Source of the DNA: a virus
Taxonomy: Duplodnaviria > Caudoviricetes
Length of the DNA: 64,000 nt
Reading direction: 5' to 3' (one strand)
Virus record (IMG/VR): IMGVR_UViG_3300021963_000022
In this document: positions 16,709 through 62,806 of the stretch, piece by piece
Layout: every line of letters begins with the position of its first letter
How positions within the stretch are numbered: position 1 is the stretch's first letter
Made by a program: the position numbers and the translations under genes
Notes under the pieces: model-generated
Databases searched by the model: none
What the model saw: the letters and a program-made list of their open reading frames with translations, nothing else
Told to the model about the DNA's origin: nothing

Positions 16709-17305
16709 ATGAGTTTAGTGCCTATCGTTGTTGAGACTACAAGTAAAGGTGAACGTAGTTACGACATTTATTCACGTTTGATGCGTGACCGTGTAATTTT
16801 GCTTGAAGGCGAAGTACATGACCAAATGGCAAATTTAATTGTTGCCCAACTATTGTTCTTAGAAAGTGAAGATAGTCATAAAGATATTTCAATGTATATC
16901 AATAGTCCAGGTGGTTCAGTTACTGCTGGTATGGCAATCTATGATTGTATGCAATTTGTTAGCCCTGATGTACAAACAATTGTTATGGGTCAAGCCTGTT
17001 CAATGGGTAGTTTGCTTGGTCAAGCAGGAGCTAAAGGTAAGCGTTTTATCCTGCCCAATGCACGACATATGATTCACCAGCCCTCAGGTGGCGCACGTGG
17101 TCAAGCTACTGATATGGAAATTCAGGTTAAAGAGATTTTAGCCATGAAAAAGACATTGACACAAATCTATGTAGACCATAATAGTGCAGGAAAATCGTTT
17201 GAGGAGCTTGCAAAAGACATGGAACGTGACTATTTTATGAGTGCAAGTGAGGCCGTAGCATATGGCCTAGCTGATAAAGTGTTGCAAAAACGCAACATGT
17301 CCTAA
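16709..17305 (+). CDS. clpP: Clp protease proteolytic subunit ClpP
   Basis: [27 protein letters not shown]. Confidence 0.97.
17280..17297. promoter_or_regulatory. Palindromic operator-like site, second copy
   Basis: Identical to 1620-1637; lies in the clpP 3' end in a different reading frame. Confidence 0.55.
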
Positions 17306-24895: not shown

Positions 24896-25263
24896 AAATG
24901 GAAACAGTAATTCTTCAACTTCTTATCTTACTTTATATCAAACACTGGTACATTGATTTTGTTAATCAGAACGATGCTGAGATAGCTAGTAAAGGTATCT
25001 ATGGTGACAAACTAGGTATATTACATAGTGCCAAGCATGGCATTCTCACAGCACTATGTGTATTTTTTGTCACTGGATATATGTATTTGATTTACGCAAT
25101 CATTTTAGGTGTGATTGACTTTGTTGCACATTATCATATTGATTGGGTCAAATCAAATTATGGTAACAATAACATCAAAACTAAAGAGTTTTGGAATCAT
25201 TTAGGATTAGACCAACTAGCTCACCAATTGGTTTATCTATTCATTGCTTACATGATAAGTTAA
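24892..25263 (+). CDS. DUF3307-like membrane protein
   Basis: KHWYIDF...HSAKHG...HYHIDWVK...DQLAH. Confidence 0.75.
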   Translation: MKMETVILQLLILLYIKHWYIDFVNQNDAEIASKGIYGDKLGILHSAKHGILTALCVFFVTGYMYLIYAIILGVIDFVAHYHIDWVKSNYGNNNIKTKEFWNHLGLDQLAHQLVYLFIAYMIS

Positions 25264-25571
25264 GTACTTGGTTTTCTAGTATAATCAACTAAATTAAAAT
25301 CTTCGCCAGAACCCACTAAACAAGTGATATCACCTTTAGTAGTGATTATAGACCAAGATTTAGTATTTGGATTAATCCACAAAGACATTATACTACGAGC
25401 TTGGTCTGCTGTTTTGCCAATCAACAGTGGGCTCTCTCTGTATTTCTCTTTGAGTTTACCTACAATTTCTTTTGTATCTGAACAATAAAGTTCAGCGGTA
25501 ATCATCTCTCCGGCGTTACTTTGTAGTGGCACGATAGACGCCATCCCAATCAGTAGGTAAATTGTTTTCAC
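25260..25571 (-). CDS. Small secreted protein
   Basis: Signal-like N-terminus, two Cys; AGGAG RBS before GTG. Confidence 0.7.
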   Translation of the reverse strand: MKTIYLLIGMASIVPLQSNAGEMITAELYCSDTKEIVGKLKEKYRESPLLIGKTADQARSIMSLWINPNTKSWSIITTKGDITCLVGSGEDFNLVDYTRKPST

Positions 25572-27567
25572 GTAGTTCTCCTATTCTTTCTATCATTATA
25601 TCATAATAGTCATCCATATGCGAATCAAATTCACCCTTTAGTTGGTCTATCATATGCAATGCCTGATCCCATTTCTGTTCACGGTAATAATCTATCATCA
25701 AATCATGTATCTCACGTGCTGATAGATATTCTGTAATAGTACTAGGATCAGTCTTTAATGGTGTGTAGATATTCAATCCAATTGTCTTACCCTTTACAGC
25801 AATACAATCTAACTCTAATGTAAAGATTTCATCTTTAACTTGCTCATTAGTATTAGGACCAATGATACATAACACACCATATCCTTTAGTCTGGCCTTCT
25901 AGCCTAGCCGCAGTAGATACACTATCACCTAATACGTCATAACCAAACTTAGTTTTAGCACCAATGTTACCGATCAATGTTTCACCTGTGTTAACACCGG
26001 CACCCATACCAACTGGTGGACGACCACTCGCTGTTAACTCTTTATTGAATTCTTCAATAGCATCAATCATTTGCATTGCAGTTATAACCGCTGTTACTGC
26101 ATGTTTAGGATCGTCTAATGGTGCACCATGTACATGTAAACTTGCATCACCGATGAACTTAATTAATGTACCATCGTTCTTTAATACAGGAACACTTAAT
26201 GCAGTCATGTAGTCATTCATAATCTGTGTCAAGCCTTCAACGTCATCTCCGAATGACTCGCCTAAACTAGTGAATCCACGCAAATCAGTCATAACAATAG
26301 ATAATTCTCTACGTTCTCCTCCTAACTTAATTAGTGAAGGATCTTTCTGTAATCTTTCAACTATAGTTGGATTGACATAACTTCCAAACTGTTTCTTAAT
26401 TTGTTGTTTCTGTAAGAATTCACTTACAAACTTGACAGTATAAGCATGAAGATAAACCAAACCAATCCCAGTAACAGGGGCGGTAATATCATAGAGCCAT
26501 AGATTGGATGTGAATAGATACGATGCAATAAAATGACTAGAACCAAGAACAATAATAACTGGAATAAAAGCATATGTCCACCTTGATAATAATATAACTA
26601 ATAAACCTAAAGCTAGTATAGCGATAAGTTCCACACCATCAGCATAATCAGGACGCACAATAACAACATTGTTAAGCATCGTTCCTATTATACTAGCTTG
26701 AACATCATGTGGCCATACTGATCCTTTACTTGTCGGTACAGGATTGTTTAATCCACTCGCAGTTAAGCCCACTATAACAATAGCACCACCAAAGTCTTTT
26801 GGTAGATCCATTAAACTTACTGGTTTGCTTTGTTGACTGTAATCAATCCAAATACGTCCTAAATTATCAGTAATAATAGTACCAAACTTTGGTATACGCA
26901 TTTTTTCTACACCATTCTCGTTAAGCTTAACTTGGAATGTTGTATCTCCTGCGGCCACTCTTAGTACTTCCATACTTAAACTTGGGTAGAGTTTACCATC
27001 TACACTAGCAATCAATGGGATACGTCTATTGACACCATCTATCTCTGGTAATGTATTAGCTGTACCTACACCATATGCACTGTTTTCTAATAGAGGAACG
27101 TTAGCAATGATTCCTGGATACTGAACTATTCTATCTAACCATTCAGGAGCTAATACTGCTGCACCTGGATTACGTGGAATATTCTTTGTTTTGTCACTAG
27201 GTATATTAGGAAGAATAACAGGATACTGTTTCATAATATATGCTAACTTACCATCTTGACCACTTCTATCACTATCAGGCATTAGTACGTTGAATACAAC
27301 AAGACCTGCATTACGTTTGTATAAGTCTTCTATTATTTTAGCGTATTCGTTGCGTGGTAATGGCCACTGACCATACTTGTCCAATGTTGCTTCATCTACA
27401 TTGACTGTGTAGATGTTGTTTTCTGTTGGAGCTTTATTAGTGATAAGAGTATCAAAATATCTTAATCTAACTGATTCTATGAATTGAGAATCTGCTACAC
27501 GAACCGAAAGAACTAGTACTAGCGTTAGTAGCGCCGACCAGGGACTGAGAATTATTTTTTTAATCAT
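25516..27567 (-). CDS. CHASE2-domain class III adenylate cyclase
   Basis: GQWPLPR CHASE2, three TM helices, DLRGFT, KFIGDA, YDVLGDSVSTAARLE. Confidence 0.93.
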   Translation of the reverse strand: MIKKIILSPWSALLTLVLVLSVRVADSQFIESVRLRYFDTLITNKAPTENNIYTVNVDEATLDKYGQWPLPRNEYAKIIEDLYKRNAGLVVFNVLMPDSDRSGQDGKLAYIMKQYPVILPNIPSDKTKNIPRNPGAAVLAPEWLDRIVQYPGIIANVPLLENSAYGVGTANTLPEIDGVNRRIPLIASVDGKLYPSLSMEVLRVAAGDTTFQVKLNENGVEKMRIPKFGTIITDNLGRIWIDYSQQSKPVSLMDLPKDFGGAIVIVGLTASGLNNPVPTSKGSVWPHDVQASIIGTMLNNVVIVRPDYADGVELIAILALGLLVILLSRWTYAFIPVIIVLGSSHFIASYLFTSNLWLYDITAPVTGIGLVYLHAYTVKFVSEFLQKQQIKKQFGSYVNPTIVERLQKDPSLIKLGGERRELSIVMTDLRGFTSLGESFGDDVEGLTQIMNDYMTALSVPVLKNDGTLIKFIGDASLHVHGAPLDDPKHAVTAVITAMQMIDAIEEFNKELTASGRPPVGMGAGVNTGETLIGNIGAKTKFGYDVLGDSVSTAARLEGQTKGYGVLCIIGPNTNEQVKDEIFTLELDCIAVKGKTIGLNIYTPLKTDPSTITEYLSAREIHDLMIDYYREQKWDQALHMIDQLKGEFDSHMDDYYDIMIERIGELRENNLPTDWDGVYRATTK

Positions 27568-27628
27568 ATGTTAGAATGTTTTCTAAGTCTGTCATTTTGT
27601 TTCCTTTGTAATAAATGTGTTTATTATT

Positions 27629-28500
27629 TTAAGTTGATGAATAACCTGCGGCTGCTAATTCAAATCTAGCAGTACCAACACCTGCAGTATCACCGGCTAC
27701 GACACCTGTATTACTTACTTTGTTGGTTATTGATGTTAGGCCAAGACCATATCCAAATATAGCTTTATCAGAGCCATAACCTGCGGCTGCTAAATTAGCC
27801 CTAGCAGTGCCTACACCGGTAGTATCAGTAGCTACAACTCCTGTGTTTGATACTTTGTTGGTTATTGATACATAAGCACCTGACGGTACTGTTACATGAC
27901 CATATCCAAATATAGCCTTGTCAGTACCATAACCTGCGGCTGCTAATCCACTTCTAGCAGTCCCTACACCTGAGGTATCAGTAGCAACTACACCGGTATT
28001 TGATACTAGGTTGGTTATTGAAGTGGACGGGCTGAACCCATATCCAAATATAGCTTTATCAGTACCATAACCTGCGGCTGCTAATAAAGTTCTTGCAGTA
28101 CCAACACCTGCGGTATCAGTTGCCACTACACCTGTGCTTGATACTAGATTGGTCATTGACACGTATTCGAAGGTTTCGCCATATCCAAAAATAGCTTTAT
28201 TACCACCATAACCTGCGGCTGCAAGACGATGCCTAGCAGTACCAACACCTGTTGTATTACTAGCAACCACGCCTGTATTTGATACTAGATTGGTTATTGA
28301 TTGATTCAAGGCAGAGTTATTACCACCATATCCAAATATAGCTTTATCACCACCATAACTTGCTGCCGCCAATCCATATCTACCAGTACCAACACCAGTA
28401 GTGTCTGTAGCAACTACACCGGTGTTTGATACTAGATTGGTCATTGAGACACCATCACCAGCAGACCCATATCCAAATATAGCTCTTTGAGTAGGAAGAG
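27629..28500 (-). repeat. About six ~46-47 aa repeats (AAAGYGxDKAIFGYG...TNxVSNTGVVATDTxGVGTAR)
   Basis: Visible in both protein and DNA. Confidence 0.85.
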
Positions 28501-31500
28501 AAGCCGTACTAGTATCATTAATCGTCACAGTACTACTTGTGGCAACTATGGTACCACTGGTACTATCGGTTCTTAATGACACTGTAAATGTTTCTGCTCC
28601 TTCTGTTGTTGCATCATCTGTTGTAGTTACAGTAAATGAACCGGCATTAGAGGTTATTGTAAATGAACCTGAACTGGCTGAAAAATCATTTGCCGCAGTT
28701 GAGATATTATTAATTGACCAGTAATATGTTCCATTAATAATATTTGTTCCACCAACATTAAATGTCAATGTACTTACCTCATTAACACTTGAAGATGCCG
28801 GTGTTATGGTGTAAGTAGGTGTCAAACTAATATCATTAATTGTCACCGGAATACTTGTGGCAACTATATCACCACTAACACTACCGATTCGTAACGACAC
28901 CGTAAATGTTTCTGCTCCTTCAGTTAATTGATCGGCTGTCGGTGTTACTGTAAATGAACCGGCATTAGATGTAATTGTAAAAGATCCAGAGCTTGTTTCA
29001 AAATCACCGACATTTGAATTTATTGTCCAGTAATATGTTCCATTGATAATACCTATTCCACCTGCATTAAATGTCAATGCTGAACCTTCATTAACACTTA
29101 AAGATAGCGGTGTTATAACATAAATAGGCGGGTCCGATGTAGTAAATGTTATTGAGCCTGAGCTTGTAAATGTATAATATCTATATCCGTCACGTTGTAT
29201 TGTTGATACTGTACCGGTCGTTACTGATGCCGGTGCATATGAGTCCAAGTATCGAAGGACAACAGCTCCGGCAGCTCCGTTGAAACCATCGTAAGGTGCA
29301 CCGCCAGAACGTCCGCCGCCTCCGCCGCCACCGCTATTAGGAGACCCTGAACATCCTAATATAGTACCAGTATTGATATGAAAAATAGTAGCTTGACCAC
29401 CTCCGCCAATTCCACCGAGACCTGTTCCAGTACTAGTATTAGATTGTGCTCCACCACCGCCACCGCCGTAATATTTACCATCAAAGGCCTGCAATCCTGG
29501 ACCACCGTTGCCGGTGCCATCAAGAGGAGTGCCAGTACTATCCGATCCTGCCCCGCCCGCTCCACCACCGCCTCCGGTATCAACAGTCTGACCGGTGCCG
29601 CCATCATATCCTTGACCAATAGTGCCGGCACCGCCAGCTGCATAACCACTAACAGACGAGCCGCCACCGCCTGAACCACCTGCGCTTCCACTTTGGATAC
29701 TACCACCTCCACCTCCCCCTATAGCAGTAATAGATCCAAATACAGAATTGGATCCATTATTGCCAGGTTGAGTTGAATCTACTGACCCAGTACCACCTTC
29801 ACCAACTATCACTGTAATAGGTACACCGGGTGTAATGCTATATCCTGTTCCCGTCAAGAAGCCACCACCACCACCGCCACCGCCACCGCCGTAGCCACCA
29901 CCACCACCGCCGGCTACAACTACATAATCAATTGTTGTTGGTATTGTAGTTGATGTAACGACAGAAACTGAATTACTAGGAACACTAGTGCCTATACTAT
30001 TAGTAGCAGTTACTGTAAATGTATAAGTTGTGTCAAGGGTCAAATCACTAAACACTGTGCTACCACCATCTATACAATTGACAGTATTAATAATCCCTAA
30101 CGGATATTGAACATTGCCGGGAAGACGAGTTATACTATATGTAGTGATCGGTGAATTTCCATTACTGATTGGAGCAAGAAAATCAACTGTAGCTGTAGTA
30201 GCATTAATTAATGTTGCACTTAATATGATAGGAGCAGAAGGAGCAGTAGTAGTTCCTGCTATCGCCCCTACTACATCCCTAGCTGGAGAAGCTGGTAATA
30301 CATTTACCCAATTAGTACCACTACCTATTTGAGTTGGACTACTACGAGGGATGATATTGCTTAATCCCAGTATACCACCAGAATTAGAGCCCCAACTCCA
30401 CAATGTGCCGTCAGATTTAACACCTACAACAGAAGAATATCCTGCATTTACAATAGACCAATTGGTGTCGCTACCTATCTGAGTTGGACTACTTCTTTCG
30501 ATAGAAATTGAATTCAATCCGGTTTGGCCATGCCTAGAATCCCCACATACCCACAACGTACCGTCTGTTTTTATTAAAAAATTAGTATCTGATCCAGTCG
30601 ACTGGGTTTTAGATATTCTAGCCCATGTAGTTAATGAGCCAACTTGTACTGGACTACTTCTAGAGATTGTAGTATTATCACCTAAGGTACCAAATGTATT
30701 ATCTCCCCAAGACCATAATGTACCGTTTGTTTTAATTGCCAATACATTCTGCGTATTACCACCTATACTGATCCAATCAGTATCAGCACCGACTTGAACT
30801 GGACTACTTCTAGCTATTGTATTGTTTGTACCCAACTGACCAGCAGAATTATCTCCCCATGCCCATAATGTTCCATTTGTTTTTAGTGCAAAAGTAGAAT
30901 ATGGACCACTAAACACACTAGACCAATTTGTGTCAGACCCTAATTGCACTGGGCTACTTTTGTTTGTACTATTTGAGTTGCTTATTCCGGATATAGATAT
31001 AGGCTCGCCCCATACCCATAATGTACCATCTGTTTTAACAGCAAGTGAAACTGCGTCCTGACTTACTGCTGTCGCAGAAACTACTCTCCAATTAGTCAAG
31101 CTGCCAACTTGTACTGGACTACTTCTAGTCACATTATCGTTAACACCTAATTGACCAACACCATTGGGACCCCATGCCCACAATGTACCATCTTTTTTCG
31201 TTGCTAACACATGTTTATATCCTACACTAATAGTAGACCAAGTACTAGCACTACCGACTTGAACTGGACTACTTCTAGCTATTATATTATTTGTACCCAT
31301 TTGTCCGTTTGCATTCAGTCCCCAAGTATACAATTCGGTAGTGGGTATATTAGTTGTAACACTATTACTTGCACTACTAGGTAAGCTTTCACCGACACTA
31401 TTTGTTGCAGTAACTGTAAATGTATAAGTTGATTGTGGATTTAATCCAACTACAGTAATTGGTCCGAGCACAGTTGAGTAAGCTTTGATATTATCCGGAG

Positions 31501-34471
31501 TACTTGTTACCGTATATTGTACGATATCACTCCCGTTATCAGATAATGGTCTAGTAAATGATACACTGACTGTACTTATACCTGTAACTGTTGCGACTAC
31601 ATTTGTAGGAGCTGATGGTTTAGCTGCGGTACCTTTAATAAGCATTGCGGTACCTCCTGTGAATTCAGAACTAGCTCTTAACCAGTTAGTGTCACTACCA
31701 ATTTGTACCGGACTACTTCTGCTAACTACATCACCGAGTCCTAATTGACCAACACCATTGGGACCCCATGACCATATTGTACCATCAGTCTTGATGGCTT
31801 TTGTTGTACGGCCGGCACTAACCACAGTCCAGCTACTTGTACCAAGTTGAGTCGGGCTACTACGATGCACTGTATCATTTAATCCCAATACTCCGAATGC
31901 ATTCTCCCCCCATGTCCATAATGAACCATTATTTTTAATAGCGGCTGCATTGTATCTTCCTCTTGATATTTTTACCCACGTAGTTTCTGAACCTATTTGC
32001 ACAGGACTACTGCGAGTTACTACATCGTTTAGTCCTAACTGTCCGTAACTATTAGAGCCCCATGCCCACAATGTGCCATCTATTTTTTTAGCAAAAACAC
32101 TACTACTAGCAACATCATCGCCACCTGTGCTAACATAATCCCAATTAGTATCAGTACCAATCTGGGTCGGACTTGATCGAGATACAGTAGAGATCAAACC
32201 TAAAGGCGGTCCGCCATAGCCTGTAACCCATAGTGTACCATTTGTTTTAACAATGTACATGTTAACAATACCTGCTCTTAAATTTCTCCAGTCAGTATTA
32301 CTACCAATTTGAGTTGGGCTACTACGATACACTTGATCGTTTAGTCCTAACTGTCCCCATGCATTGCTACCCCAGGTCCATAAACTACCATCTTTCTTGA
32401 TTGCCGCGGCGTAGATGCCGGCCGACACAGTAATAGCTTCCCAATCAGAACCATTTCCTATTTGCACAGGGGCACTACGGTATATCGTATCACCCAAACC
32501 CAGTTGACCTGAATCATTAGGACCCCAAGCCCATAATGTACCGTCAGTTAAAAGTCCTAATGACATAGCTTGTGTAGCATTTGGCCCGCCGCTTAATACA
32601 GTTTTCCAACTTCTAAGCTGACCGACTTGTACCGGACTAGACCTGTTGATAGTGGAGTTTATACCTAGTTGCCCTTCTTGATTAGCACCTACTGAATATA
32701 AATATAATTCAGGATTAGGAGTATCTACAGGTATAACACTATCACTTGCGCTACTTGGTGCACTAGTACCTATACTATTAGTTGCTGTTACTGTAAATGT
32801 ATAACTTGTGCCTGGTATTAAGTTATTAACAATAATACCGCCACCACCTGACTTGTTAGATAGTGTACCTGTATATCCACCCGGTGTGCTTGTTGCAGTA
32901 TATGTTACATAACTATATGTACCTGTAACAATTGGAGCCGCAAAGCTAACACGTACGCTAGTAGATGATACTGCTTCTACAGCTAATATAGTTGGTGCAC
33001 TTGGTGCAGTTTTACTACCATTAAGAGCCATGACATAATTTTCACCTGAACCAACACTATTAACCCAAGTTGTAGAACTACCCACTTGTACTGGACTACT
33101 ACGATATACTAAATCATTTTGTCCTAGTTCTCCTGTTTGATTTCCGCCCCAACTCCACAATGTGCCATCTGTTCTGTTTGCAATAGTAAATTGAGTAGAG
33201 GTAGTAGTTACTACTTTTCCGGCAGTAGTTATATTATTCCAGTTAGTATCTGTTCCTATTTGTACTGGACTACTTCTGTTAATAACAGTATTGTCACCCA
33301 CACTACCAAACTGATTATTACCCCAGCCCCATAGTGTACCATTAGTTTTTGTAGCAAATACACTAGTTTGTGTTGTAAAAAATCCACTAGACGATTTAAC
33401 AATCTTATACCAATTAGTTAGTCCTCCAATTTGTACTGGACTACTACGTAATATTACAGAATTAATACCTAACTCTCCGTTGCTGTTGTTACCCCAAGAC
33501 CAAAGTGTTCCGTTAGTACGAGTTGCCAATGCATTGTATGCCCCCCCACCTATATTAACCCAATCAGTATCATTTCCAACTTGTATAGGGCTATTGGCAC
33601 CAATTGGTGAATTTGTACCTAGTTGTCCATACGTATTATCACCCCATGCCCATAGAGAGTTATCTGTTTTTATGCCCAAACCAAAACTTTGAGTTTGAAA
33701 TATATCAACCCAATCAGTGTCTGATCCAATTAATACCGGACTAGATACTCCAAATAATAGTCCTATTGACGCTCCATTCAACGGTCCACTTCCAAATTGA
33801 CCCCATGACCAAAGAGTACCATCAGTTTTTATTGCAGTAGATGTATAGTAACCTACACCAACGTTATTCCATGTAGTTAATGCCCCAACTTGAATAGGGG
33901 AACTTACATAACTTACACCACTACCTAATCCAAATCCGCCATTATCAGCACGTCCACCCACAGCCCATAAAGTGCCATTATTTTTTGTTGCTAATGTATA
34001 TCTGTATCCTACAGCTAGCGTACTCCAATCTCCAGTTGATCCTATTTGTGTAGGACTACTTCTAGGTACGGTATCACTTAACGCTAATTGATAATATTGA
34101 TTTGTACCCCATGAATAAGGATTTATAGCAGGAGCACTTGTTGTAATGCTATTACTTGCACTACTTAAAGAACCACTACCTATACTGTTTGTTGCATATA
34201 CAGTAAATGTATAACTTGTGCTTGGTACTAATCCGTTTACTGTGATAGTACCAGAATCACTTTGTACTAATGTACCTGTGATATTGCCCGGTGTACTTAT
34301 TGCTGTATAGCTAATGATAGTACTATTACCGTTACTTGCAGGGGCAGTAAATGCTACCGTAGCACTATTTGCACCTGTTGCAGTTGCTGTACCTATAGTA
34401 GGTGCATCTGGCACATTAGTAGTAGGTAATGCGTTAAATCCGCCTGTAATCGTTATTCCGGTAAAATCCAT
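27629..34471 (-). CDS. 2280 aa FN3/RCC1-repeat virion-surface or adhesin-like protein
   Basis: Four FN3-like domains (YTFTVTATNSIG), three blocks of RCC1 repeats (DGTLW.WG.N..GQLG...SSPVQ), Gly-rich segment, two EGAETFTVSL domains, C-terminal repeats. Confidence 0.85.
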   Translation of the reverse strand: MDFTGITITGGFNALPTTNVPDAPTIGTATATGANSATVAFTAPASNGNSTIISYTAISTPGNITGTLVQSDSGTITVNGLVPSTSYTFTVYATNSIGSGSLSSASNSITTSAPAINPYSWGTNQYYQLALSDTVPRSSPTQIGSTGDWSTLAVGYRYTLATKNNGTLWAVGGRADNGGFGLGSGVSYVSSPIQVGALTTWNNVGVGYYTSTAIKTDGTLWSWGQFGSGPLNGASIGLLFGVSSPVLIGSDTDWVDIFQTQSFGLGIKTDNSLWAWGDNTYGQLGTNSPIGANSPIQVGNDTDWVNIGGGAYNALATRTNGTLWSWGNNSNGELGINSVILRSSPVQIGGLTNWYKIVKSSSGFFTTQTSVFATKTNGTLWGWGNNQFGSVGDNTVINRSSPVQIGTDTNWNNITTAGKVVTTTSTQFTIANRTDGTLWSWGGNQTGELGQNDLVYRSSPVQVGSSTTWVNSVGSGENYVMALNGSKTAPSAPTILAVEAVSSTSVRVSFAAPIVTGTYSYVTYTATSTPGGYTGTLSNKSGGGGIIVNNLIPGTSYTFTVTATNSIGTSAPSSASDSVIPVDTPNPELYLYSVGANQEGQLGINSTINRSSPVQVGQLRSWKTVLSGGPNATQAMSLGLLTDGTLWAWGPNDSGQLGLGDTIYRSAPVQIGNGSDWEAITVSAGIYAAAIKKDGSLWTWGSNAWGQLGLNDQVYRSSPTQIGSNTDWRNLRAGIVNMYIVKTNGTLWVTGYGGPPLGLISTVSRSSPTQIGTDTNWDYVSTGGDDVASSSVFAKKIDGTLWAWGSNSYGQLGLNDVVTRSSPVQIGSETTWVKISRGRYNAAAIKNNGSLWTWGENAFGVLGLNDTVHRSSPTQLGTSSWTVVSAGRTTKAIKTDGTIWSWGPNGVGQLGLGDVVSRSSPVQIGSDTNWLRASSEFTGGTAMLIKGTAAKPSAPTNVVATVTGISTVSVSFTRPLSDNGSDIVQYTVTSTPDNIKAYSTVLGPITVVGLNPQSTYTFTVTATNSVGESLPSSASNSVTTNIPTTELYTWGLNANGQMGTNNIIARSSPVQVGSASTWSTISVGYKHVLATKKDGTLWAWGPNGVGQLGVNDNVTRSSPVQVGSLTNWRVVSATAVSQDAVSLAVKTDGTLWVWGEPISISGISNSNSTNKSSPVQLGSDTNWSSVFSGPYSTFALKTNGTLWAWGDNSAGQLGTNNTIARSSPVQVGADTDWISIGGNTQNVLAIKTNGTLWSWGDNTFGTLGDNTTISRSSPVQVGSLTTWARISKTQSTGSDTNFLIKTDGTLWVCGDSRHGQTGLNSISIERSSPTQIGSDTNWSIVNAGYSSVVGVKSDGTLWSWGSNSGGILGLSNIIPRSSPTQIGSGTNWVNVLPASPARDVVGAIAGTTTAPSAPIILSATLINATTATVDFLAPISNGNSPITTYSITRLPGNVQYPLGIINTVNCIDGGSTVFSDLTLDTTYTFTVTATNSIGTSVPSNSVSVVTSTTIPTTIDYVVVAGGGGGGYGGGGGGGGGGFLTGTGYSITPGVPITVIVGEGGTGSVDSTQPGNNGSNSVFGSITAIGGGGGGSIQSGSAGGSGGGGSSVSGYAAGGAGTIGQGYDGGTGQTVDTGGGGGAGGAGSDSTGTPLDGTGNGGPGLQAFDGKYYGGGGGGAQSNTSTGTGLGGIGGGGQATIFHINTGTILGCSGSPNSGGGGGGGRSGGAPYDGFNGAAGAVVLRYLDSYAPASVTTGTVSTIQRDGYRYYTFTSSGSITFTTSDPPIYVITPLSLSVNEGSALTFNAGGIGIINGTYYWTINSNVGDFETSSGSFTITSNAGSFTVTPTADQLTEGAETFTVSLRIGSVSGDIVATSIPVTINDISLTPTYTITPASSSVNEVSTLTFNVGGTNIINGTYYWSINNISTAANDFSASSGSFTITSNAGSFTVTTTDDATTEGAETFTVSLRTDSTSGTIVATSSTVTINDTSTASLPTQRAIFGYGSAGDGVSMTNLVSNTGVVATDTTGVGTGRYGLAAASYGGDKAIFGYGGNNSALNQSITNLVSNTGVVASNTTGVGTARHRLAAAGYGGNKAIFGYGETFEYVSMTNLVSSTGVVATDTAGVGTARTLLAAAGYGTDKAIFGYGFSPSTSITNLVSNTGVVATDTSGVGTARSGLAAAGYGTDKAIFGYGHVTVPSGAYVSITNKVSNTGVVATDTTGVGTARANLAAAGYGSDKAIFGYGLGLTSITNKVSNTGVVAGDTAGVGTARFELAAAGYSST

Positions 34472-34587
34472 ATGTGTTTATTCTATTAAAGAGTATTTAT
34501 CTCACTTAGGATTATATATTTGTATAGTAATCTTAGTTTAGCCTCATTATCTTGTATTTAGTTTAAGAAATAACGAGAGTTGAAATA

Positions 34588-35076
34588 TTATCTAAAAACA
34601 ATAGTTACTGTTGCTAACATCACAGGCACACCCATAGCCATACAACTTAGACCTATCAATACACGGTCAATCATATCAGCATGTGCCTTAGCAATTGTTT
34701 CTTTGCGTTTTTTCTCGGCTGCGGCACGTTCTTTATACATACGGACACGTTCAGCCATCATTTCATCCCATACATCTTTATTGCCAGACCATATTAATAA
34801 GTCTTTCAAATCTTTCTCTGCTTCTCTAAGTGCTTTACTATGCATAGCAATCTGCAAAGCGTGTGCTCGTATCTGACCATCAGTTAACATTGAATTATCA
34901 ATTTTTTCTTTTAAATCTGTACTAGCAGAATGCACTGTATCACAGTTTATAAAAAAACTACTAAATTGTTTATAAAGACTATTAACATCTTTACCCAAAG
35001 CTACAGCTTGTTTAATGTAGCCTACTGTTTTCTGTGCAGTTGCAAAAGCAATACCAATTGTGATAGGGTCAAGCAT
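34588..35076 (-). CDS. Hypothetical protein with C-terminal TM
   Basis: MLDPITIG... coiled coil plus TM. Confidence 0.75.
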   Translation of the reverse strand: MLDPITIGIAFATAQKTVGYIKQAVALGKDVNSLYKQFSSFFINCDTVHSASTDLKEKIDNSMLTDGQIRAHALQIAMHSKALREAEKDLKDLLIWSGNKDVWDEMMAERVRMYKERAAAEKKRKETIAKAHADMIDRVLIGLSCMAMGVPVMLATVTIVFR

Positions 35077-35230
35077 TTTTCTTAGGCTCCTTATTTTTTG
35101 GAGGAGGTTTATCCCATTCTAAACACACAACTCTACGGTTGTATACATCGCCAGTCCAAGTCCATCTTATACAACGAGGCTCTTTGGCTAGCATTCCTAC
35201 TAGCATCATTGAAGCAATAGCATTAACCAT
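35069..35230 (-). CDS. 53 aa small protein
   Basis: MVNAIASMMLVGMLAKEPRCIRWTWTGDVYNRRVVCLEW...; coupled at both ends. Confidence 0.55.
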   Translation of the reverse strand: MVNAIASMMLVGMLAKEPRCIRWTWTGDVYNRRVVCLEWDKPPPKNKEPKKNA

Positions 35231-35231
35231 G

Positions 35232-36350
35232 TTATTGGCCCTGTGTTACTGTGATTTTAGCGCACCCACCTACTGTCGCACAGTTGAAATTGATTGAATA
35301 GAAGTTCTGAGTAGAACCACTCTGACTTAAACTTAAATCTGTAGTAGTACCTGATAATGTAACTTTAGCCATGTGACTAGCACTACCTTGTTGAAGTATG
35401 TCTACGTTTTTGCTTCCACCAAATAGACTAACATCAGCATAATGACTTCCGCTATCTTTCTGTTGAATTAACAATGTGTTATTATTGTTATTCACTGTAG
35501 CAAATATACCTTTGCCTCCACCGGTGCTTTGTTGTTGTAAATTTACATTGTTACTATTGCCAACGACTGAAGCATCTATATAATTTGCTTGTGTATTACT
35601 ATTACCTGATTGAGTAATTGTAATAGTATTACTACTACCATTACTGTAATATTTTGTATAGTTGTTTTTTGTACCTGTTTGATTGACAGTAATTGTATTT
35701 TGATTACCAAGTTGTTCTATATAAACCTGACTGTCTTGTGTTGTACGATTAATAAATGCTTGAACTTTTGCAGTATTATTAGGATCAGCACTAAATGCAG
35801 TAGAACTACCACCGCAACATAGACTCGGTGCAGCCGGTGCGGCTGTTTGTCCTGCGGCTAAAGGTTCAGTAGAATATGTTGCATTAGCATATGCATCTGC
35901 TTGTGCTATAGTAGGGTTCAATGTTCCAGTCCAAGATACACCACTAGTATTTGCCATTCCAGAACTACCACTAAACAATTGACCTGTATTGTTATCACTA
36001 CCTACAAAGAAAAAATAGTCAGGTCCCATGTTAACAATCTTACCGCTACCTAATGTAGCTTTTAGACTCCCTGCACTATTATATTGTTTTGCTGTATAGG
36101 GAAATGATGCATTGCCACTTAATTCAAACTTAACATAATCACCAGTAGCCCATTGCACTTGTCCACTAGTCCATGGTATCTTGTATGCGACACCGGGTTG
36201 TTTACTATATATTTGACAGGTAGTTGTATATAAACAAGCACTTACATTCCATTGACTATCAGCGATTTGGTATCTGCCAAATTTAACATCTGTTAAACTA
36301 GCAAAAGCATTACTACACAAAAATAATAGTAATAAGAATATCTTTTTCAT
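35232..36350 (-). CDS. Secreted protein with C-terminal curlin-like repeats
   Basis: Signal peptide; VYIEQLGNQNTITVNQTG-type Q/G/N repeats. Confidence 0.75.
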   Translation of the reverse strand: MKKIFLLLLFLCSNAFASLTDVKFGRYQIADSQWNVSACLYTTTCQIYSKQPGVAYKIPWTSGQVQWATGDYVKFELSGNASFPYTAKQYNSAGSLKATLGSGKIVNMGPDYFFFVGSDNNTGQLFSGSSGMANTSGVSWTGTLNPTIAQADAYANATYSTEPLAAGQTAAPAAPSLCCGGSSTAFSADPNNTAKVQAFINRTTQDSQVYIEQLGNQNTITVNQTGTKNNYTKYYSNGSSNTITITQSGNSNTQANYIDASVVGNSNNVNLQQQSTGGGKGIFATVNNNNNTLLIQQKDSGSHYADVSLFGGSKNVDILQQGSASHMAKVTLSGTTTDLSLSQSGSTQNFYSINFNCATVGGCAKITVTQGQ

Positions 36351-36520
36351 TTGTTGTTTTTAACAAACCAATAATGTTTCTGTAACTCTCTAAGTACTTC
36401 GCTTTCCGGCTGCTTGAACTGTCTTGCCGCCATTTCAACAAAGTCTAACCATCTAAAATCATATTGTTCATTACCCTGGCACCATTGCTGATACATTAAT
36501 TGTAATTCTCTTCCCGTCAT
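36347..36520 (-). CDS. 57 aa small protein
   Basis: MTGRELQLMYQQWCQG...; ATGA-coupled at both ends. Confidence 0.6.
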   Translation of the reverse strand: MTGRELQLMYQQWCQGNEQYDFRWLDFVEMAARQFKQPESEVLRELQKHYWFVKNNK

Positions 36521-37611
36521 CTTTTTCTTATTCCTGAATTCTGTTTGATAAAGACCATATTACCTCCCGGTGATCCATCACCAATAAGTTCCGATGCTAA
36601 TGTATCGTTATGAATAATAGTAACTAATGTGTTTGAACTGTATCCCAGTGTTTTTACTTCAGCATAATGTTCATTCTCTGTATTACGATATGCCACACCC
36701 TTACCCCTACTTTGTATCTCTGATTCATTTTTTTCCCAGATGACGCAGACATTTGTAGCAGAATTACAATTCTTGTTTACAAACCCAGTAGTAAGATTTA
36801 ATATCCTTGCTTGTGTCTCATCACTATCTTTTTGTATAGCTTCATTTAACTTACGTGCTTGCTCTTGTTCTTCTTGTTCTTGTTCCATTTCTTTTTTGCT
36901 CTTACCATTTTGATTGTTAATAGCTTTAATAATTTCCAATGGCTTTGCAATAATCAAGTTGTTTGATATTTTTCTCTCAGTTATATTCATTACAACTGGT
37001 ATAGTAGGTGCTATATTATTACTTGTAACAAATGTACCATGAAATGCTTGATCCAATACAACTTTGCCAACCAATGTCTCTACTTCAATACTACCTACAC
37101 GGCATTTGTTTTCTTCTAATTCGTAATCTTTCACTTTTTCATCTTCTTTACAGCTAGGAACTAATACGATTAAGCTCTGTCCTGCTTCATCTACTGTCAT
37201 AGTGAAGTCAGTACCACGTACTGCAATACTTGCTGTTGGAGTTTTGATTGCTACTTGTTGACTATTTGTTTTAGCAATTTGTCCTGATGCATAGCGTACT
37301 GTACCCATACCAACTTTAAGTGCTAGTTTTCCTGCATCACTTTTATTGGGGTCAAACACAAAATCGTCTATAAGTAAACGACTATTCTCGGTTACTTTGA
37401 CTTTAGTATCATCTTTGAAAATTAATTGTACTGTGCCGTTTTTAGTAGAATAGATATCATTACTTTCGATACCAACACCTTTATTGCCTACAACTTTGTT
37501 TTTTCCACGAGTAATTTCACCAGGAGCACCTGTAAATTCCGATACGTTACCTATGTTAGCATTTGCTGTTATACATAATAGCAAAGACAACAATATGAAT
37601 AACTTACGCAT
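36517..37611 (-). CDS. FecR-domain secreted protein
   Basis: Signal peptide; F.DDT.V.V.ENSRL, GTVRY, IKTPTASIAVRGTDF. Confidence 0.85.
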   Translation of the reverse strand: MRKLFILLSLLLCITANANIGNVSEFTGAPGEITRGKNKVVGNKGVGIESNDIYSTKNGTVQLIFKDDTKVKVTENSRLLIDDFVFDPNKSDAGKLALKVGMGTVRYASGQIAKTNSQQVAIKTPTASIAVRGTDFTMTVDEAGQSLIVLVPSCKEDEKVKDYELEENKCRVGSIEVETLVGKVVLDQAFHGTFVTSNNIAPTIPVVMNITERKISNNLIIAKPLEIIKAINNQNGKSKKEMEQEQEEQEQARKLNEAIQKDSDETQARILNLTTGFVNKNCNSATNVCVIWEKNESEIQSRGKGVAYRNTENEHYAEVKTLGYSSNTLVTIIHNDTLASELIGDGSPGGNMVFIKQNSGIRKR

Positions 37612-37613
37612 TA

Positions 37614-38411
37614 TTATCTCGGTACTGCTGTTCTTGGTGTTGATATTGTACTTGCGCTACTAGTTCTCACAGTAATAGTATTGTGATCACCCGTAGTTTT
37701 AATGTCAACAGTTGTATCATTTGTACCTTGTTGTTGAGTAATAATACTATTGTAGTTACCTGCAATAACTTGTTTCAAGTTATGGCCATTTGCACCACTA
37801 GCATCAAATTGTTCAATGTCAAGTTTGTTATTACTACCGGTGATACTGATATCACTTATACCAAAACTACTTTTTAAATCTTTAGTAATTTCATTAGTGC
37901 TACCTGTAATTAATAATGTGCTTTGAATATCACTACCAATTAAGTTTTGAATAACAGTATTATCGTTACCAGTAATTGTTTCAGTAATGATGTTACGTAA
38001 ATTACTTGCATTTTGTACATCACCAACTGTTAGTTTGGTCTTATTGTTGTTTCCAGTAACTGTACTAGTGTAGTCGTTGTTATTACCTTTAATGTTATAT
38101 TGACCTAAATTGTTGTCACCTTTTTGAATCATAGTAATAGTGTTGCTATTACCACTAATAGTGGCATAGTTAGTATTACTAGGTGTGGCATTATCTACCC
38201 CACCGATGTTGTTAGTTCCACCTGTTTGTTCAAGTGTGACTGTGTTGGTATTACCAACTTGTTCAATATAAACTTTATTAGGGCCTGTAGCGGCAGTTTG
38301 TACCTGCGCCATACTAGTTCCTGTTAGCAATGATAATGCTAATGCTGAAAGCACCGTCTTATAGTTTTTATAATGCTTCATTAAAATACAGTAATCAGTT
38401 GTCCTGATCAC
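37614..38411 (-). CDS. Curlin-repeat (CsgA/B-like) secreted protein
   Basis: Signal peptide; ~23 aa repeats xxQxGxxNxxxxxQxG; start may be 38381. Confidence 0.8.
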   Translation of the reverse strand: MIRTTDYCILMKHYKNYKTVLSALALSLLTGTSMAQVQTAATGPNKVYIEQVGNTNTVTLEQTGGTNNIGGVDNATPSNTNYATISGNSNTITMIQKGDNNLGQYNIKGNNNDYTSTVTGNNNKTKLTVGDVQNASNLRNIITETITGNDNTVIQNLIGSDIQSTLLITGSTNEITKDLKSSFGISDISITGSNNKLDIEQFDASGANGHNLKQVIAGNYNSIITQQQGTNDTTVDIKTTGDHNTITVRTSSASTISTPRTAVPR

Positions 38412-38498
38412 GCTCCTTGGGTTTTACCCTTATTTTTATTACCTACTTCTTTTTAGATATTTGATAGACTGTAGGCTTTTTGGTCTACCAAACATTGT

Positions 38499-39497
38499 TT
38501 ATTCTTTTACTTCTTCTTTCTTTTTACTGAATTTGAATATGTTTGTGAATCCTTCTGAGACCTTATTCCAGAAACTTCTAATTTCGTTTCCTTTAATATC
38601 TTTTCCGTTGTCGGGCTTAGATGGTGCGGTTGTAATTTTGGGGGTGTCTTTAGGTGAGGCTTTCTCTTGAACCAACTCATTTTTTTTCTCCTCTTTTTTA
38701 AAATTCCAATGTCCCTTACGAGCACCTTCACGTATTGTATCTATGACGGCTGCTTGTATGGCCATACTTGTAGCCTTGTTAATGCTTTCATTAATACTAA
38801 CACCAACTTCAGCTTCAATACTACTTGTACCTTCACTAGCAAAACGTAATACGCCTGCTTTGTCCATATAACTTAATACGGTTTTAGTAACTGTTACACT
38901 AGTTAATACTTCGCCTGTGCTAACGCTTACTGTTCTTAAATTGATAGTTACTGTGTCTGACTGATATTGTGTGCTAGTCCCAATACCTAATACTCTGACA
39001 CCTGAACCACCTGTTAATGTGTTGCTATCATAACCAACAATACCACCTTCAACCAATACACCGGCAAACATCATTGGGGGTAATGGTTTAGCATCACGTC
39101 CTTGATATTGTTCACGCATCTGACGTATCATTTGACGTTCTTTGATTAAGTTATCTAATCCAACACGTTCTAATACAACAAACCACTTGCTCTCACCTAC
39201 ATCTTGTAATGCTTTAATCAAGTAGCTTTCTGCACCCTGTGTAACTGCTGAACTTAAGCTAGCAATATTCTGTGTACTTTTACGTTGTCCTGTTTTATCT
39301 GAAAACCCATAGACAGCAATAGTAATAGGACCATCATTTGGTGGCAGTAACTTATTGTTATCTTTTTTCATATAAACGTTTTGTTCTATAACAGGCTCAT
39401 CAAATTGTTTACCCGTGATTGCATTTCTAGTACTGCTACTGATGGCACAACCAGAAAGGATAAGCACGACCGATAATAATAGTAATAGTTTTTTCAT
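38499..39497 (-). CDS. csgG: Curli secretion channel CsgG-like lipoprotein
   Basis: Lipobox LSGC; IAVYGFSDKTGQRK, VTQGA, FVVLER..L..ERQMIR, GGIVGYD. Confidence 0.92.
   Translation of the reverse strand: MKKLLLLLSVVLILSGCAISSSTRNAITGKQFDEPVIEQNVYMKKDNNKLLPPNDGPITIAVYGFSDKTGQRKSTQNIASLSSAVTQGAESYLIKALQDVGESKWFVVLERVGLDNLIKERQMIRQMREQYQGRDAKPLPPMMFAGVLVEGGIVGYDSNTLTGGSGVRVLGIGTSTQYQSDTVTINLRTVSVSTGEVLTSVTVTKTVLSYMDKAGVLRFASEGTSSIEAEVGVSINESINKATSMAIQAAVIDTIREGARKGHWNFKKEEKKNELVQEKASPKDTPKITTAPSKPDNGKDIKGNEIRSFWNKVSEGFTNIFKFSKKKEEVKE
38507..38680 (-). CDS. 57 aa basic protein nested in csgG 3' end (alternate frame)
   Basis: GAGGAG RBS 8 nt before ATG 38680; MSWFKRKP... Confidence 0.45.
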   Translation of the reverse strand: MSWFKRKPHLKTPPKLQPHHLSPTTEKILKETKLEVSGIRSQKDSQTYSNSVKRKKK

Positions 39498-39979
39498 TAG
39501 AAGTAAAATGTCCCCGCTGGTACCTTCATTGTTGTTGTTTGTGATGGGTTAGCATTGTTAACAATAGTGATAATGATTAAACCATTATCTGCTCCATCAC
39601 CTAATTTCCAACTGATAGTATTGCCACCTAAATCAGGAATAGTTCCACAAATTACACCTTTTGTAGTGCAAGTTGATCCTTCACCGAACATACTATCAGT
39701 CAACTGTTTGGCTAGTTGACTATAAATTCTTGACTCTAAATTAGCTAAAAATCTAGCTTGAGGTGTATTAAGGGCATCACTCTCTACCTTTGCTTTTAAT
39801 GCATCGGCTAATGCCTTATTCTTGTCTTTTTGTAGGTCTTCTAACTGTTTTAACGTTAGTACATGGCTACTATAACCCTGTCCGCTGAAACTAGGGCTAT
39901 TAAACTGATGCGTTAATTCAGCCGAATAGGCTAACACAGCGAGCATCATTAGGGTACTTACTGTTATACCTCTTATCAT
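39497..39979 (-). CDS. csgF: Curli assembly factor CsgF-like
   Basis: Signal peptide + AELTHQFNSPSFSG...F.ANLESRIY.QL. Confidence 0.85.
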   Translation of the reverse strand: MIRGITVSTLMMLAVLAYSAELTHQFNSPSFSGQGYSSHVLTLKQLEDLQKDKNKALADALKAKVESDALNTPQARFLANLESRIYSQLAKQLTDSMFGEGSTCTTKGVICGTIPDLGGNTISWKLGDGADNGLIIITIVNNANPSQTTTMKVPAGTFYF

Positions 39980-40065
39980 TATCTGCTCCGATCCGATAAA
40001 TATTATATATATATATTTAGTTGATTTACATCAAAAGATATAGTGTAATACATAAAAGGATATTT

Positions 40066-40347
40066 ATGGGAGATATATTTAAGATTATAGGTGACTTAGG
40101 GTTTCCAATTGCGGTTGCCCTTGCCGGTGGTTACTTTGTTTATTTGACTATCAAACTACTATTACAGGGTGTTCTAGGGTCAATCAAAGGTATGGCCGGC
40201 ATCATTACTGCACTTGATAATCGTGTAAAAACTATGAACCATGATGTTATTCGCATTGATACCATTGTTAGTAATGCTCTAGGTTTACGTCCAGATGCGG
40301 AACGTATAGCCCGTGCTGATGGTAAAACTGATGCTCGGAGGGATTAA
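40066..40347 (+). CDS. Single-TM coiled-coil protein
   Basis: LGFPIAVAL...LDNRVKTMNHDVIR; paralogue of 41531..41851. Confidence 0.7.
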   Translation: MGDIFKIIGDLGFPIAVALAGGYFVYLTIKLLLQGVLGSIKGMAGIITALDNRVKTMNHDVIRIDTIVSNALGLRPDAERIARADGKTDARRD

Positions 40348-61288: not shown

Positions 61289-61364
61289 TGGAGCGGGCGA
61301 AGAGGCTCGAACTCTCGACATTTACCTTGGCAAGGTAATGCTCTACCAACTGAGCTACGCCCGC
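61289..61364 (-). tRNA. tRNA-Gly(GCC)
   Basis: GCGGGCGTAGCTCAG...TTGCCAA...TTCGAG...TCCA. Confidence 0.95.
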
Positions 61365-61365
61365 A

Positions 61366-61515
61366 TTAACTTGGAATAACATGTGGTATATATGGTACAT
61401 TACGTGGTCCATGTCGTTGTTCAAAAAGCTTTTTAGCTTCTTGTACGGTCGGTGCATACACACGATCTTTAGTATCACCTTGTGGTGTTCTAACTGTTGT
61501 TTCATACATTGGCAT
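61366..61515 (-). CDS. 49 aa protein between tRNAs
   Basis: AGGA RBS; MPMYETTVRTPQG... Confidence 0.6.
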   Translation of the reverse strand: MPMYETTVRTPQGDTKDRVYAPTVQEAKKLFEQRHGPRNVPYIPHVIPS

Positions 61516-61529
61516 ATATTATTCCTATT

Positions 61530-61604
61530 TGGTACATCGACACGGTTTCGAACCGCGGACCCTCTCCGTGTAAAGGAGACGCTCTACCCCTGAGCTATCG
61601 ATGC
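61530..61604 (-). tRNA. tRNA-Val(TAC)
   Basis: TCTCC-TTTACAC-GGAGA anticodon arm; CCA. Confidence 0.93.
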
Positions 61605-61614
61605 CTTATTCTAT

Positions 61615-61794
61615 TTAACCACCCTGTGTGCTATCTTTAACTTTTGTTTCACTAACAATACGTTCAAATTCATCATCTTCGTTTTTGTGATCCTCAACAA
61701 TTCTTGGATCAGGCTTACGAAAGATTAAGTCAAAGTTACTATCAAATGTCTTTAATGGGACACTAAATGGTCTTGGACTAGAACCCTTACTCAT
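61615..61794 (-). CDS. 59 aa protein
   Basis: MSKGSSPRPFSV...; ATGA-coupled. Confidence 0.6.
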   Translation of the reverse strand: MSKGSSPRPFSVPLKTFDSNFDLIFRKPDPRIVEDHKNEDDEFERIVSETKVKDSTQGG

Positions 61795-61955: not shown

Positions 61956-61977
61956 AATATTTCCTTTTTAATTAAAT

Positions 61978-62055: not shown

Positions 62056-62062
62056 AATATTC

Positions 62063-62383: not shown

Positions 62384-62432
62384 AAAGTTCTCCTTATCTA
62401 AAATCGCATATTGACCTCGCTTTCTTAATGGT

Positions 62433-62801: not shown

Positions 62802-62806
62802 TAATT

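Follow-up and report, generated by a model that had tools for sequence, protein, structure and literature searches.

A curli-type gene module with a FecR-domain protein and a CHASE2 adenylate cyclase in a large phage lineage found mainly in fresh and estuarine waters

Gene content of the locus

The DNA analysed here is IMG/VR record IMGVR_UViG_3300021963_000022 (Duplodnaviria; Caudoviricetes), a stretch of 64,000 nucleotides (nt) that is called the window throughout. On its minus strand, from position 39979 to 25260, co-oriented open reading frames (ORFs) follow one another without interruption, and plus-strand genes lie on both sides. Read along the minus strand, the order is csgF, csgG, a first curlin-repeat gene (curlin 1), fecR, which encodes a FecR-domain protein, a second curlin-repeat gene (curlin 2), small ORFs, a giant gene with RCC1 and FN3 domains, a gene for a CHASE2 adenylate cyclase, and a 103-residue ORF. 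The initial annotation of the window had listed the genes of this run, and ORF and Pfam searches found all of them on the minus strand at the positions it gave. The translations indicate signal peptides in CsgF, curlin 1, curlin 2, the FecR protein and the product of the 103-residue ORF. A module of this kind is already known, the whole set including FecR and the cyclase having been published (PMC9599517), and it is close to certain that the run in the window is a member of this viral type VIII secretion system (T8SS)-FecR-cyclase module.

Conservation in related viruses

A scan of IMG/VR with the CsgG sequence returned 54 related loci (numbered with the prefix L below) at 65–81% identity, on contigs of up to 353 kb; 45 of these are non-redundant. 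Presence counts consider only the loci with enough sequence available. Among the non-redundant viral loci csgF is present in 45/45, curlin 1 in 42/42, fecR in 37/37 and curlin 2 in 36/36. The position of fecR is equally constant, between both curlin genes in all 37 loci. The cyclase is present in 27/27, in 23 cases within 10 kb, while the other four loci carry CHASE2 genes 10.7 to 18.5 kb downstream of csgG. The initial annotation had made its proposal depend on the cyclase and FecR occurring together with csg genes in relatives, and this co-occurrence held throughout (27/27 and 37/37).

The relatives are visible at the protein level only; the whole run had no megablast match among 50,697 phage records. 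An identical cyclase occurs on 22 metagenome contigs, the longest of 347,736 bp. DNA nearly identical to that of the window appears in sequencing runs of 12 studies, most of them labelled freshwater, lake, drinking water or estuary, with some labelled marine or fungus metagenome; the window may itself derive from one of these. The lineage is T4-like and of jumbo size, about 350 kb, and its DNA comes mainly from runs labelled freshwater, lake or estuary. Since the module is carried by jumbo phages of these habitats, the trait does not appear to be tied to SAR11 or OM43 hosts. Two estuary RNA libraries contain short contigs that are exact matches to csgG, curlin 1 and curlin 2, a weak hint of transcription with DNA carry-over possible. 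This cover consists of Logan contigs only, spans small parts of these three genes and none of the cyclase gene, which says nothing about that gene's expression, and has a depth unsuited to ranking genes.

CsgF and CsgG

The csgF-like gene (39497–39979, minus strand) encodes a protein of 160 residues that matches Pfam family PF10614 (2.9e-8). Its mature N-terminus, which carries a motif of the type FQF..P.F.G, aligns with the E. coli CsgF segment that inserts into CsgG (FQFRNPNFGG), at a phmmer E-value of only 0.3 (chains 6l7a and 6lqh).

The csgG-like gene (38499–39497, minus strand) encodes a predicted outer-membrane lipoprotein channel of 332 residues with an LSGC lipobox. It matches PF03783 (3e-53) and, over residues 2–277, the E. 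coli CsgG structures in the PDB (5e-51). At the constriction, the phage alignment has T, S and L in place of Y51, N55 and F56 (E. coli numbering), although this trio characterises the E. coli channel and is not known as a defining mark of the whole CsgG family. The protein also carries a C-terminal tail of about 55 residues, rich in Lys, Glu and Pro (window 38499–38665), which is absent from E. coli CsgG and partly conserved in relatives.

Pfam searches of the run detected no CsgE, CsgC or CsgD. In five related phage records, which come from relatives and not from the window's own genome, a search for CsgE (PF10627) gave a single sub-threshold match containing a stop codon. CsgE, CsgC and CsgD are not known outside the Gammaproteobacteria, and CsgE is reportedly missing likewise from ordinary curli systems outside that class.

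Curlin-repeat proteins

Curlin 1 is encoded on the minus strand at 37614–38381, or alternatively from a GTG at 38411, and matches PF07012 (Curlin_rpt, 1.5e-5). Its signal peptide ends SMA|Q, and it is probably the main subunit of the putative fibre. The space between csgG and curlin 1 contains a hairpin with a T-rich tail (38391–38411, minus strand). Because the GTG sits inside this hairpin, the ATG at 38381 is the more likely start. The hairpin might serve as a terminator or attenuator, or have a stabilising role; hairpin-type sites in the region 25000–40300 are no commoner than in shuffled sequence.

Curlin 2 (35232–36350, minus strand) has 372 residues and is assigned by its homology to curlin 1 and by a CsgA-like structural model. 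Taken alone it falls below the Pfam threshold (Curlin_rpt, E 0.015), while its homologues lie above it. Residues 205–372 are homologous to curlin 1 (BLASTP, 1e-8), and the N-terminal ~180 residues form a separate, non-curlin domain. The order along the protein is a signal peptide, a head at ~20–160, a disordered linker with an invariant CCGG, and a β-solenoid at ~205–372. The AlphaFold model (predicted local distance difference test, pLDDT, 73) shows a regular β-solenoid at residues 201–372. In a wide VIA-align search this model matched CsgA of Pontibacter korlensis (8c50) at Z 16.6 over 164 aligned residues with 24% identity, and the E. coli CsgA fibril (8enq) at Z 15.1; the fold match is unspecific by itself, as other β-solenoids such as SufD score Z 14–16. 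Foldseek of the same model against the PDB returned nothing at E <= 0.001. The head of curlin 2, like the C-terminal β domain of the FecR protein, was barely covered by the structure searches.

In an alignment of curlin 2 with its homologues the solenoid is conserved and has two C-terminal Cys residues. From relative to relative the heads are unrelated and are exchanged while the solenoid stays. Some relatives have the head type of the window alone, and others (L005, L013) combine it with an F5/8 type C (discoidin) domain. PA14 heads occur in L012 and L052, further types are found elsewhere, and the closest relative, L003, has a protein of 155 residues with no head at all. PA14 and discoidin domains are typical sugar-binding modules of adhesins. 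Curlin 2 as a conserved anchor with swappable heads would fit a fibre-anchored adhesin, and such heads favour adhesion or decoy binding over a bare pore. A function as a pore only is hard to reconcile with them.

FecR-domain protein and its bacterial counterparts

The fecR gene (36517–37611, minus strand) encodes 364 residues with a match to PF04773 (7e-10). An 18-residue signal peptide is followed by a periplasmic domain of the FecR/PupR type (~20–216), a helix rich in Glu and Gln, and a small C-terminal β domain. Residues 49–216 of the model match the PupR CCSSD (6ovk) at Z 15.2 with a root-mean-square deviation of 2.6 Å over 134 aligned residues, and the model matches BDI_1681 (4m0n) at Z 14.2. 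The first ~95 residues of the mature protein also match a 76-residue 'cell surface anchoring domain' (5ix9) at Z 10.1. With its signal peptide and no anti-sigma domain, the protein is expected to be soluble, and either periplasmic or secreted. Between fecR and curlin 2 lies a 57-residue ORF (36347–36520, minus strand) without a signal peptide or a Pfam match. It is conserved, at 91% in L003 and 44% in L026 and L028.

The cyclase homologue search was dominated by near-identical viral copies, and bacterial context was taken from a separate scan of species-representative genomes with the cyclase alignment, which gave 80 loci. The 63 bacterial loci are mostly from Alphaproteobacteria and Desulfovibrionaceae and have cyclase identities of 25–33%. 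A FecR-domain ORF lies in the fetched flank of the CHASE2 cyclase in 26/63 of them, and in 13 it lies within 500 nt. Ten of these neighbours, of 149 to 969 residues, have the FecR domain right after the N-terminus by Pfam. None of the 63 bacterial CHASE2-cyclase loci contains csgG, csgF or a curlin gene. By this synteny, FecR and a CHASE2 cyclase are paired in bacteria in the absence of curli genes. Related arrangements are described for the Burkholderia BiofilmReg LysM-FecR protein, which adjoins a CHASE2 kinase (PA4035/PA4036), and for S. meliloti, where smc02177 lies near the CHASE2 cyclase CyaD1 of a cAMP system (PMC5192318, PMC5498481).

Sixteen of the 80 scanned loci look like phage DNA inside bacterial bins, and in six of these sixteen the phage module is present, wholly or for the most part, in phage order. 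Candidate bacterial curli-FecR-cyclase operons, with cyclase matches of 40–57% in Chitinophagaceae, Rhodobacteraceae, Legionellales, Pirellulales and other bins, were dropped. L062, L063, L065, L066, L075 and L105 are short contigs in phage order with inconsistent bin taxonomy, and are thus taken as most likely phage contigs binned with bacteria. Their bins are named Rhodobacteraceae, Bacteroidetes, Legionellales and Pirellulales.

A prediction of the complex between CHASE2 (residues 24–310) and FecR (residues 19–215), run on custom alignments, gave a score of 0.00, which is below the mark and counts neither for nor against binding.

CHASE2 adenylate cyclase and adjoining small genes

The cyclase gene (25516–27567, minus strand) encodes a class III adenylate cyclase of 683 residues with Pfam matches to CHASE2 (PF05226, 5e-38, residues 15–324) and Guanylate_cyc (1.8e-16). 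Hydrophobic stretches at ~8–22 and 311–378 precede the cyclase domain. The predicted topology consists of a first transmembrane helix, a periplasmic CHASE2 domain at ~24–310, three transmembrane helices and a cytoplasmic cyclase domain. Most of the catalytic positions are retained. The metal-binding Asp residues D428 (in MTDLRGFT) and D474 (in KFIGDA) are invariant in the alignment of homologues, and the adenine-specifying pair K470/D544 is present. R555 and the K592-G593-K594 segment (KGK) are also present, with R555 and G593 invariant and K592 nearly so in the same alignment.

The transition-state Asn of the GDxVNxAxR motif is replaced by Ser551, which aligns opposite the Asn of 2w01 and 3r5g. 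Among 32 viral cyclases, 27 pair an Asp at the specificity site with Ser, and five pair Thr or Ser with Asn. This conserved covariation of Asp with Ser, and of Thr (or Ser) with Asn, suggests a working variant rather than decay. In the mammalian cyclase the exchange of this Asn for Ser strongly lowers kcat. In one relative (L005, 16197–18197) the cyclase is missing the segment of the second metal-binding Asp, seen as a gap in the alignment, and may be an inactive copy or an assembly error.

A search of five related phage records, of which one is 98% complete and none is the window's genome, found no cyclic AMP (cAMP) receptor or cyclic nucleotide-binding domain (PF00027). Their lack of such a domain fits host receptors as the target of the cAMP.

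The 103-residue ORF (25260–25571, minus strand) has a signal-peptide-like N-terminus and shares 56 nt with the end of the cyclase gene; an 81-residue version without the leader is what gene callers choose. In L003, L004, L005, L037–39 and L041 the cyclase has a homologue of this ORF immediately next to it, on one side or the other, and these homologues align from residue 1 or from residue 6. As an exported protein that is always beside the cyclase, it is a candidate partner of the CHASE2 domain. Two further small genes stand between curlin 2 and the giant gene. One is a 53-residue ORF (35069–35230, minus strand) with tblastn matches in relatives. The other encodes a helical protein of 162 residues (34588–35076, minus strand) from a virus-only family, with a C-terminal membrane helix. 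Homologues of the latter lie beside the cyclase in L007, L009, L019, L021–24, L037–39 and L053, accompanied in relatives by the 53-residue ORF in either orientation relative to the module. Searches with the 103-, 162-, 57- and 53-residue ORFs in Pfam at E <= 1 and in the protein Atlas returned solely virus-only clusters without assigned function.

Variable cargo between curlin 2 and the cyclase

The gap between curlin 2 and the cyclase ranges in relatives from 0 to about 14 kb and is variable in content. It holds porins (Porin_4, Porin_O_P), exported proteins of 680–960 residues that belong to no family, and β-propellers (SBBP, PQQ/BamB-like), as well as metallophosphoesterases, a GT4 glycosyltransferase and a peroxiredoxin-like protein. 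On this evidence the curli genes and the cyclase bracket a hypervariable slot, a hotspot of envelope-related cargo. The porins, PQQ/BamB-like β-propeller and familyless exported proteins of ~680 residues at L035 (14252–17330), L045 (13985–20771) and L050 (13951–18387) could hint at the host group.

The slot of the window is occupied chiefly by the giant gene (27629–34471, minus strand), whose product has 2280 residues. It consists of FN3 domains (fn3, 3.5e-38), several RCC1 β-propellers (RCC1, 7e-122), a weak Calx-beta match and C-terminal Gly-rich repeats, and has no signal peptide. The C-terminus (window 27629–28900) contains about eight tandem Gly-rich repeats of ~45 residues with AIFGYG-like starts. 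At the repeats of this gene the metagenome contigs show many skips and back-joins, which suggests variation in repeat number within the population.

The initial annotation had counted the giant gene as a component of the module, a claim at odds with the comparison. No homologue of the giant protein was found in any of the 54 related loci. In a strain with a letter-identical cyclase a 973-residue protein with fn3 and Gly_rich_2 domains takes its place, and metagenome contigs break and rejoin at the gene. RCC1 proteins are present in unrelated cyanophages and in Clostridioides phages. Because of these observations, and because it is preceded by an ATAAATA box of its own, the gene is regarded as variable cargo. 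The giant protein is thus strain-variable and not a conserved part of the module, possibly a virion or surface fibre protein.

Both TAAATA boxes that the initial annotation had reported are present on the minus strand, one as CTAAATA at 40014–40020, 35 nt upstream of csgF, and one as ATAAATA at 34494–34500, 23 nt upstream of the giant gene. Across the window, 22 of the 67 copies of TAAATA lie within 60 nt upstream of a start on the same strand, against 3.7 expected, and this share is the highest among the permutations of the word. It is plausible from their placement that the boxes are cores of T4-type late promoters. Scans for sigma-70 promoters and for terminators between 25000 and 40300 gave counts no higher than those in shuffles.

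Phage context of the window

By its gene content the window is phage DNA, since it contains matches to phage families (DNA ligase, ClpP-type/head-maturation protease) and eight tRNA genes. The ATP-dependent DNA ligase lies at 4537–5871 (phrog_114, 1.4e-88), and the ClpP-type protease, at 16709–17305, matches phage head-maturation protease families (phrog_94, 1.9e-50). The tRNA genes form an array on the minus strand (61289–63355) of Gly-GCC, Val-TAC, Pro-TGG, Met-CAT, Ala-TGC, Leu-TAA, Leu-TAG and Gly-TCC. A cluster related to nucleotide metabolism (dCMP deaminase, MazG, metallophosphoesterase, DUF3307) stands immediately downstream of the cyclase, on the opposite strand.

Proposed function and alternatives

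The reading favoured here, with moderate confidence, is that the module specifies a surface amyloid adhesin together with an envelope-sensing FecR-CHASE2 unit that signals through cAMP. The mechanism is drawn from homology and synteny, and so are its central steps, namely that fibres form, that FecR communicates with CHASE2 and that cAMP is made. Late in infection, CsgG and CsgF would form a channel in the host's outer membrane. The two Sec-exported curlins would pass through this channel to the cell surface and polymerise there into a fibre or anchor built as a CsgA-like β-solenoid. Curlin 2 would join the fibre by its C-terminal solenoid and display its exchangeable head (PA14 or discoidin-type in relatives), and the infected cell would thereby gain an adhesive or shielding surface specified by the phage. 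The secreted FecR protein and the CHASE2 cyclase would be a bacterial pair adopted by the phage for sensing in the periplasm. It would report the state of the envelope or of secretion as cytoplasmic cAMP, most likely acting on host cAMP receptors, and the giant RCC1/FN3 gene would be unrelated cargo in the hypervariable slot.

This proposal overlaps in part with that of the initial annotation, in which an outer-membrane pore and a curlin scaffold were coupled through FecR to cAMP production. What had been observed at the locus is confirmed, and the interpretation is partly supported. The link between FecR and CHASE2 has become more plausible through the bacterial synteny (26/63). A physical coupling of pore, FecR and cyclase is not supported by the analysis. 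Among possible roles, earlier papers have already put forward sibling capture, superinfection protection, import and lysis timing.

Several points weigh against the adhesin and sensor model. With Ser551 in place of the Asn, the cAMP output could be weak or altered. The T/S/L constriction of CsgG, instead of Y51/N55/F56, means that the channel may pass something else. Finally, cells infected with Melnitz are described by Buchholz et al. as not clumping (PMC9004378).

An alternative with a lesser but appreciable probability is that the locus holds two separate, linked units, a curli fibre or adhesin and a FecR-CHASE2 pair that raises cAMP to reprogramme host metabolism, with no signalling between them. 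The existence of bacterial FecR-CHASE2 pairs without csg genes agrees with this arrangement. So does the position of the cyclase, which may lie up to about 18 kb from csgG, past unrelated cargo, and which is on the other strand in L031. The cyclase is also sometimes missing from podophage versions of the module (PMC9599517). However, fecR stands between the curlin genes in 37/37 loci and not beside the cyclase, and the cyclase is kept in 27/27 loci despite the variable slot, which argues for selection on the whole set.

A phage sensor working from the outside in is rather improbable. Here the heads of curlin 2 would bind a cell, a particle or a competing phage, or export of the fibre would load CsgG; FecR, in the periplasmic position that CsgE occupies in E. 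coli, would read this at the channel and relay it to CHASE2, and the resulting cAMP would signal contact or superinfection to the infected cell and to the phage programme.

We are similarly doubtful of a channel for import or sensing, in which an ungated CsgG/CsgF pore would admit a nutrient, cofactor or signal, FecR and CHASE2 would answer with cAMP, and the curlins would be secondary. Import was raised by Wittmers et al. (PMC9599517) and by Zaragoza-Solas et al. (PMC7029224). It is in keeping with the lack of a CsgE gate in the five related phage records, with constriction residues smaller than those of E. coli, and with the frequency of porins in the neighbouring slot (Porin_4 and Porin_O_P in L035). 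It leaves unexplained the two strictly conserved CsgA-like curlins, the exchangeable lectin-like heads and the retained CsgF motif, and the lack of CsgE is, as noted above, said to be shared by ordinary curli systems outside the Gammaproteobacteria.

Very unlikely, in our view, is a pore for the timing of lysis, proposed by Buchholz et al. 2022 (PMC9004378), in which CsgG/CsgF would have become a gated secretin or pinholin and would set off lysis on opening, with cAMP as the timer. The late-type box ahead of csgF and the 162-residue membrane-helix protein that accompanies the module with its 53-residue partner are compatible with such a role. However, an outer-membrane channel is unable to depolarise the inner membrane, this reading offers no explanation for the conserved curlins, for FecR or for the lectin heads, and Pfam detected no holin or endolysin families in the run. 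Least credible is a single trans-envelope apparatus in which the giant FN3/RCC1 protein works together with the pore, curlins, FecR and cyclase: its gene does share the strand of curlin 2 and the cyclase and stand between them, and other β-propellers share its slot (SBBP in L003, PQQ/BamB-like in L045), but the protein has no signal peptide, an ATAAATA box of its own, no homologue in the 54 loci and a different protein in its place beside an identical cyclase, and the same slot holds unrelated glycosyltransferase, phosphoesterase and peroxiredoxin-like genes.

It is unusual for a phage to supply its host with a complete amyloid secretion system together with a second-messenger enzyme. If the cyclase works, a lytic phage would be setting the cAMP of its host on a periplasmic cue. 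FecR and CHASE2, as an old bacterial pair, could be studied in tractable bacteria. With the present locus, the module published from marine pelagiphages is seen in abundant jumbo phages of ~350 kb as well.

Comparison with known systems

The closest known system is the pelagiphage module of HTVC008M, Melnitz and podophages of the HTVC023P type, which has the same gene set and order as the window. Zaragoza-Solas et al. 2020 described the 'curli operon' of pelagimyophages and proposed 'sibling capture' (PMC7029224). In Wittmers et al. 2022 the order csgF-csgG-csgA/B-FecR-csgA/B-adenylate cyclase is given for podo- and myo-pelagiphages, the module is reported as distributed ocean-wide with transcripts, and superinfection protection, aggregation and import are discussed as roles (PMC9599517). 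The initial annotation was right that csg genes occur in T4-like aquatic phages and that they have no assigned function; it did not know that the whole module had been published. In a tblastn search of cultured phages, matches to both CsgG and the cyclase were found only in Pelagibacter phage HTVC008M and in the Methylophilales phage Melnitz group. The annotated records of HTVC008M (gp014–019) and Melnitz (gp99–104) list CsgF, CsgG, curlin, FecR, curlin and cyclase.

Protein identities between the window and HTVC008M or Melnitz are 45–46% for CsgG, 37–42% for the cyclase and 44–46% for FecR. CsgE is absent from the module of the window and from those of the pelagiphages. The lineage of the window is different and larger, with an identical cyclase on a contig of 347,736 bp and related contigs reaching 353 kb compared to isolates of 141–147 kb, and it comes mainly from freshwater, lake, drinking water and estuary runs, whereas the published pelagiphage cases are marine. 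Unlike the pelagiphages, the window has a cargo slot of 6.8 kb, with the giant gene and small ORFs, between curlin 2 and the cyclase, and it has no upstream histidine kinase. As judged by text searches, the CHASE2 domain, the bacterial FecR-CHASE2 pairing, the exchange of curlin 2 heads and the Asn-to-Ser change go unmentioned in those pelagiphage papers.

The E. coli curli system (CsgA/B/C/D/E/F/G) shares with the phage module a CsgG lipoprotein channel, the N-terminal insertion motif of CsgF and Sec-exported β-solenoid subunits with curlin repeats. The phage run differs in having no CsgE, CsgC or CsgD and in the constriction residues of CsgG. A large non-curlin head is part of one of its subunits, the module has FecR and a cyclase embedded in it, and the carrier is a phage of lytic type.

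The FecR-domain protein shares the fold of its periplasmic domain with the PupR/FecR anti-sigma factors of TonB-dependent signalling. Unlike these, it has a cleavable signal peptide and no cytoplasmic anti-sigma domain or membrane helix, and no extracytoplasmic function (ECF) sigma factor or TonB-dependent transducer was seen among the ORFs and Pfam matches of the run. It is a FecR-domain protein and not an anti-sigma factor. Common to the phage module and the bacterial FecR-CHASE2 pairs is a FecR-domain protein with a signal peptide encoded in company with a CHASE2 membrane sensor, directly beside it in the bacterial pairs. In the phage, fecR is set apart from the cyclase and embedded between the curlin genes, while the bacterial loci have no csg genes.

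For the solenoid anchor bearing an adhesive head, the closest functional analogy is the holdfast system HfaA/HfaB/HfaD of Caulobacter. There the CsgG-like HfaB exports a curlin-like, amyloid-forming anchor of an adhesin rather than a biofilm matrix (PMC6707917). The Hfa system is cellular, anchors a polysaccharide and has neither FecR nor a cyclase.

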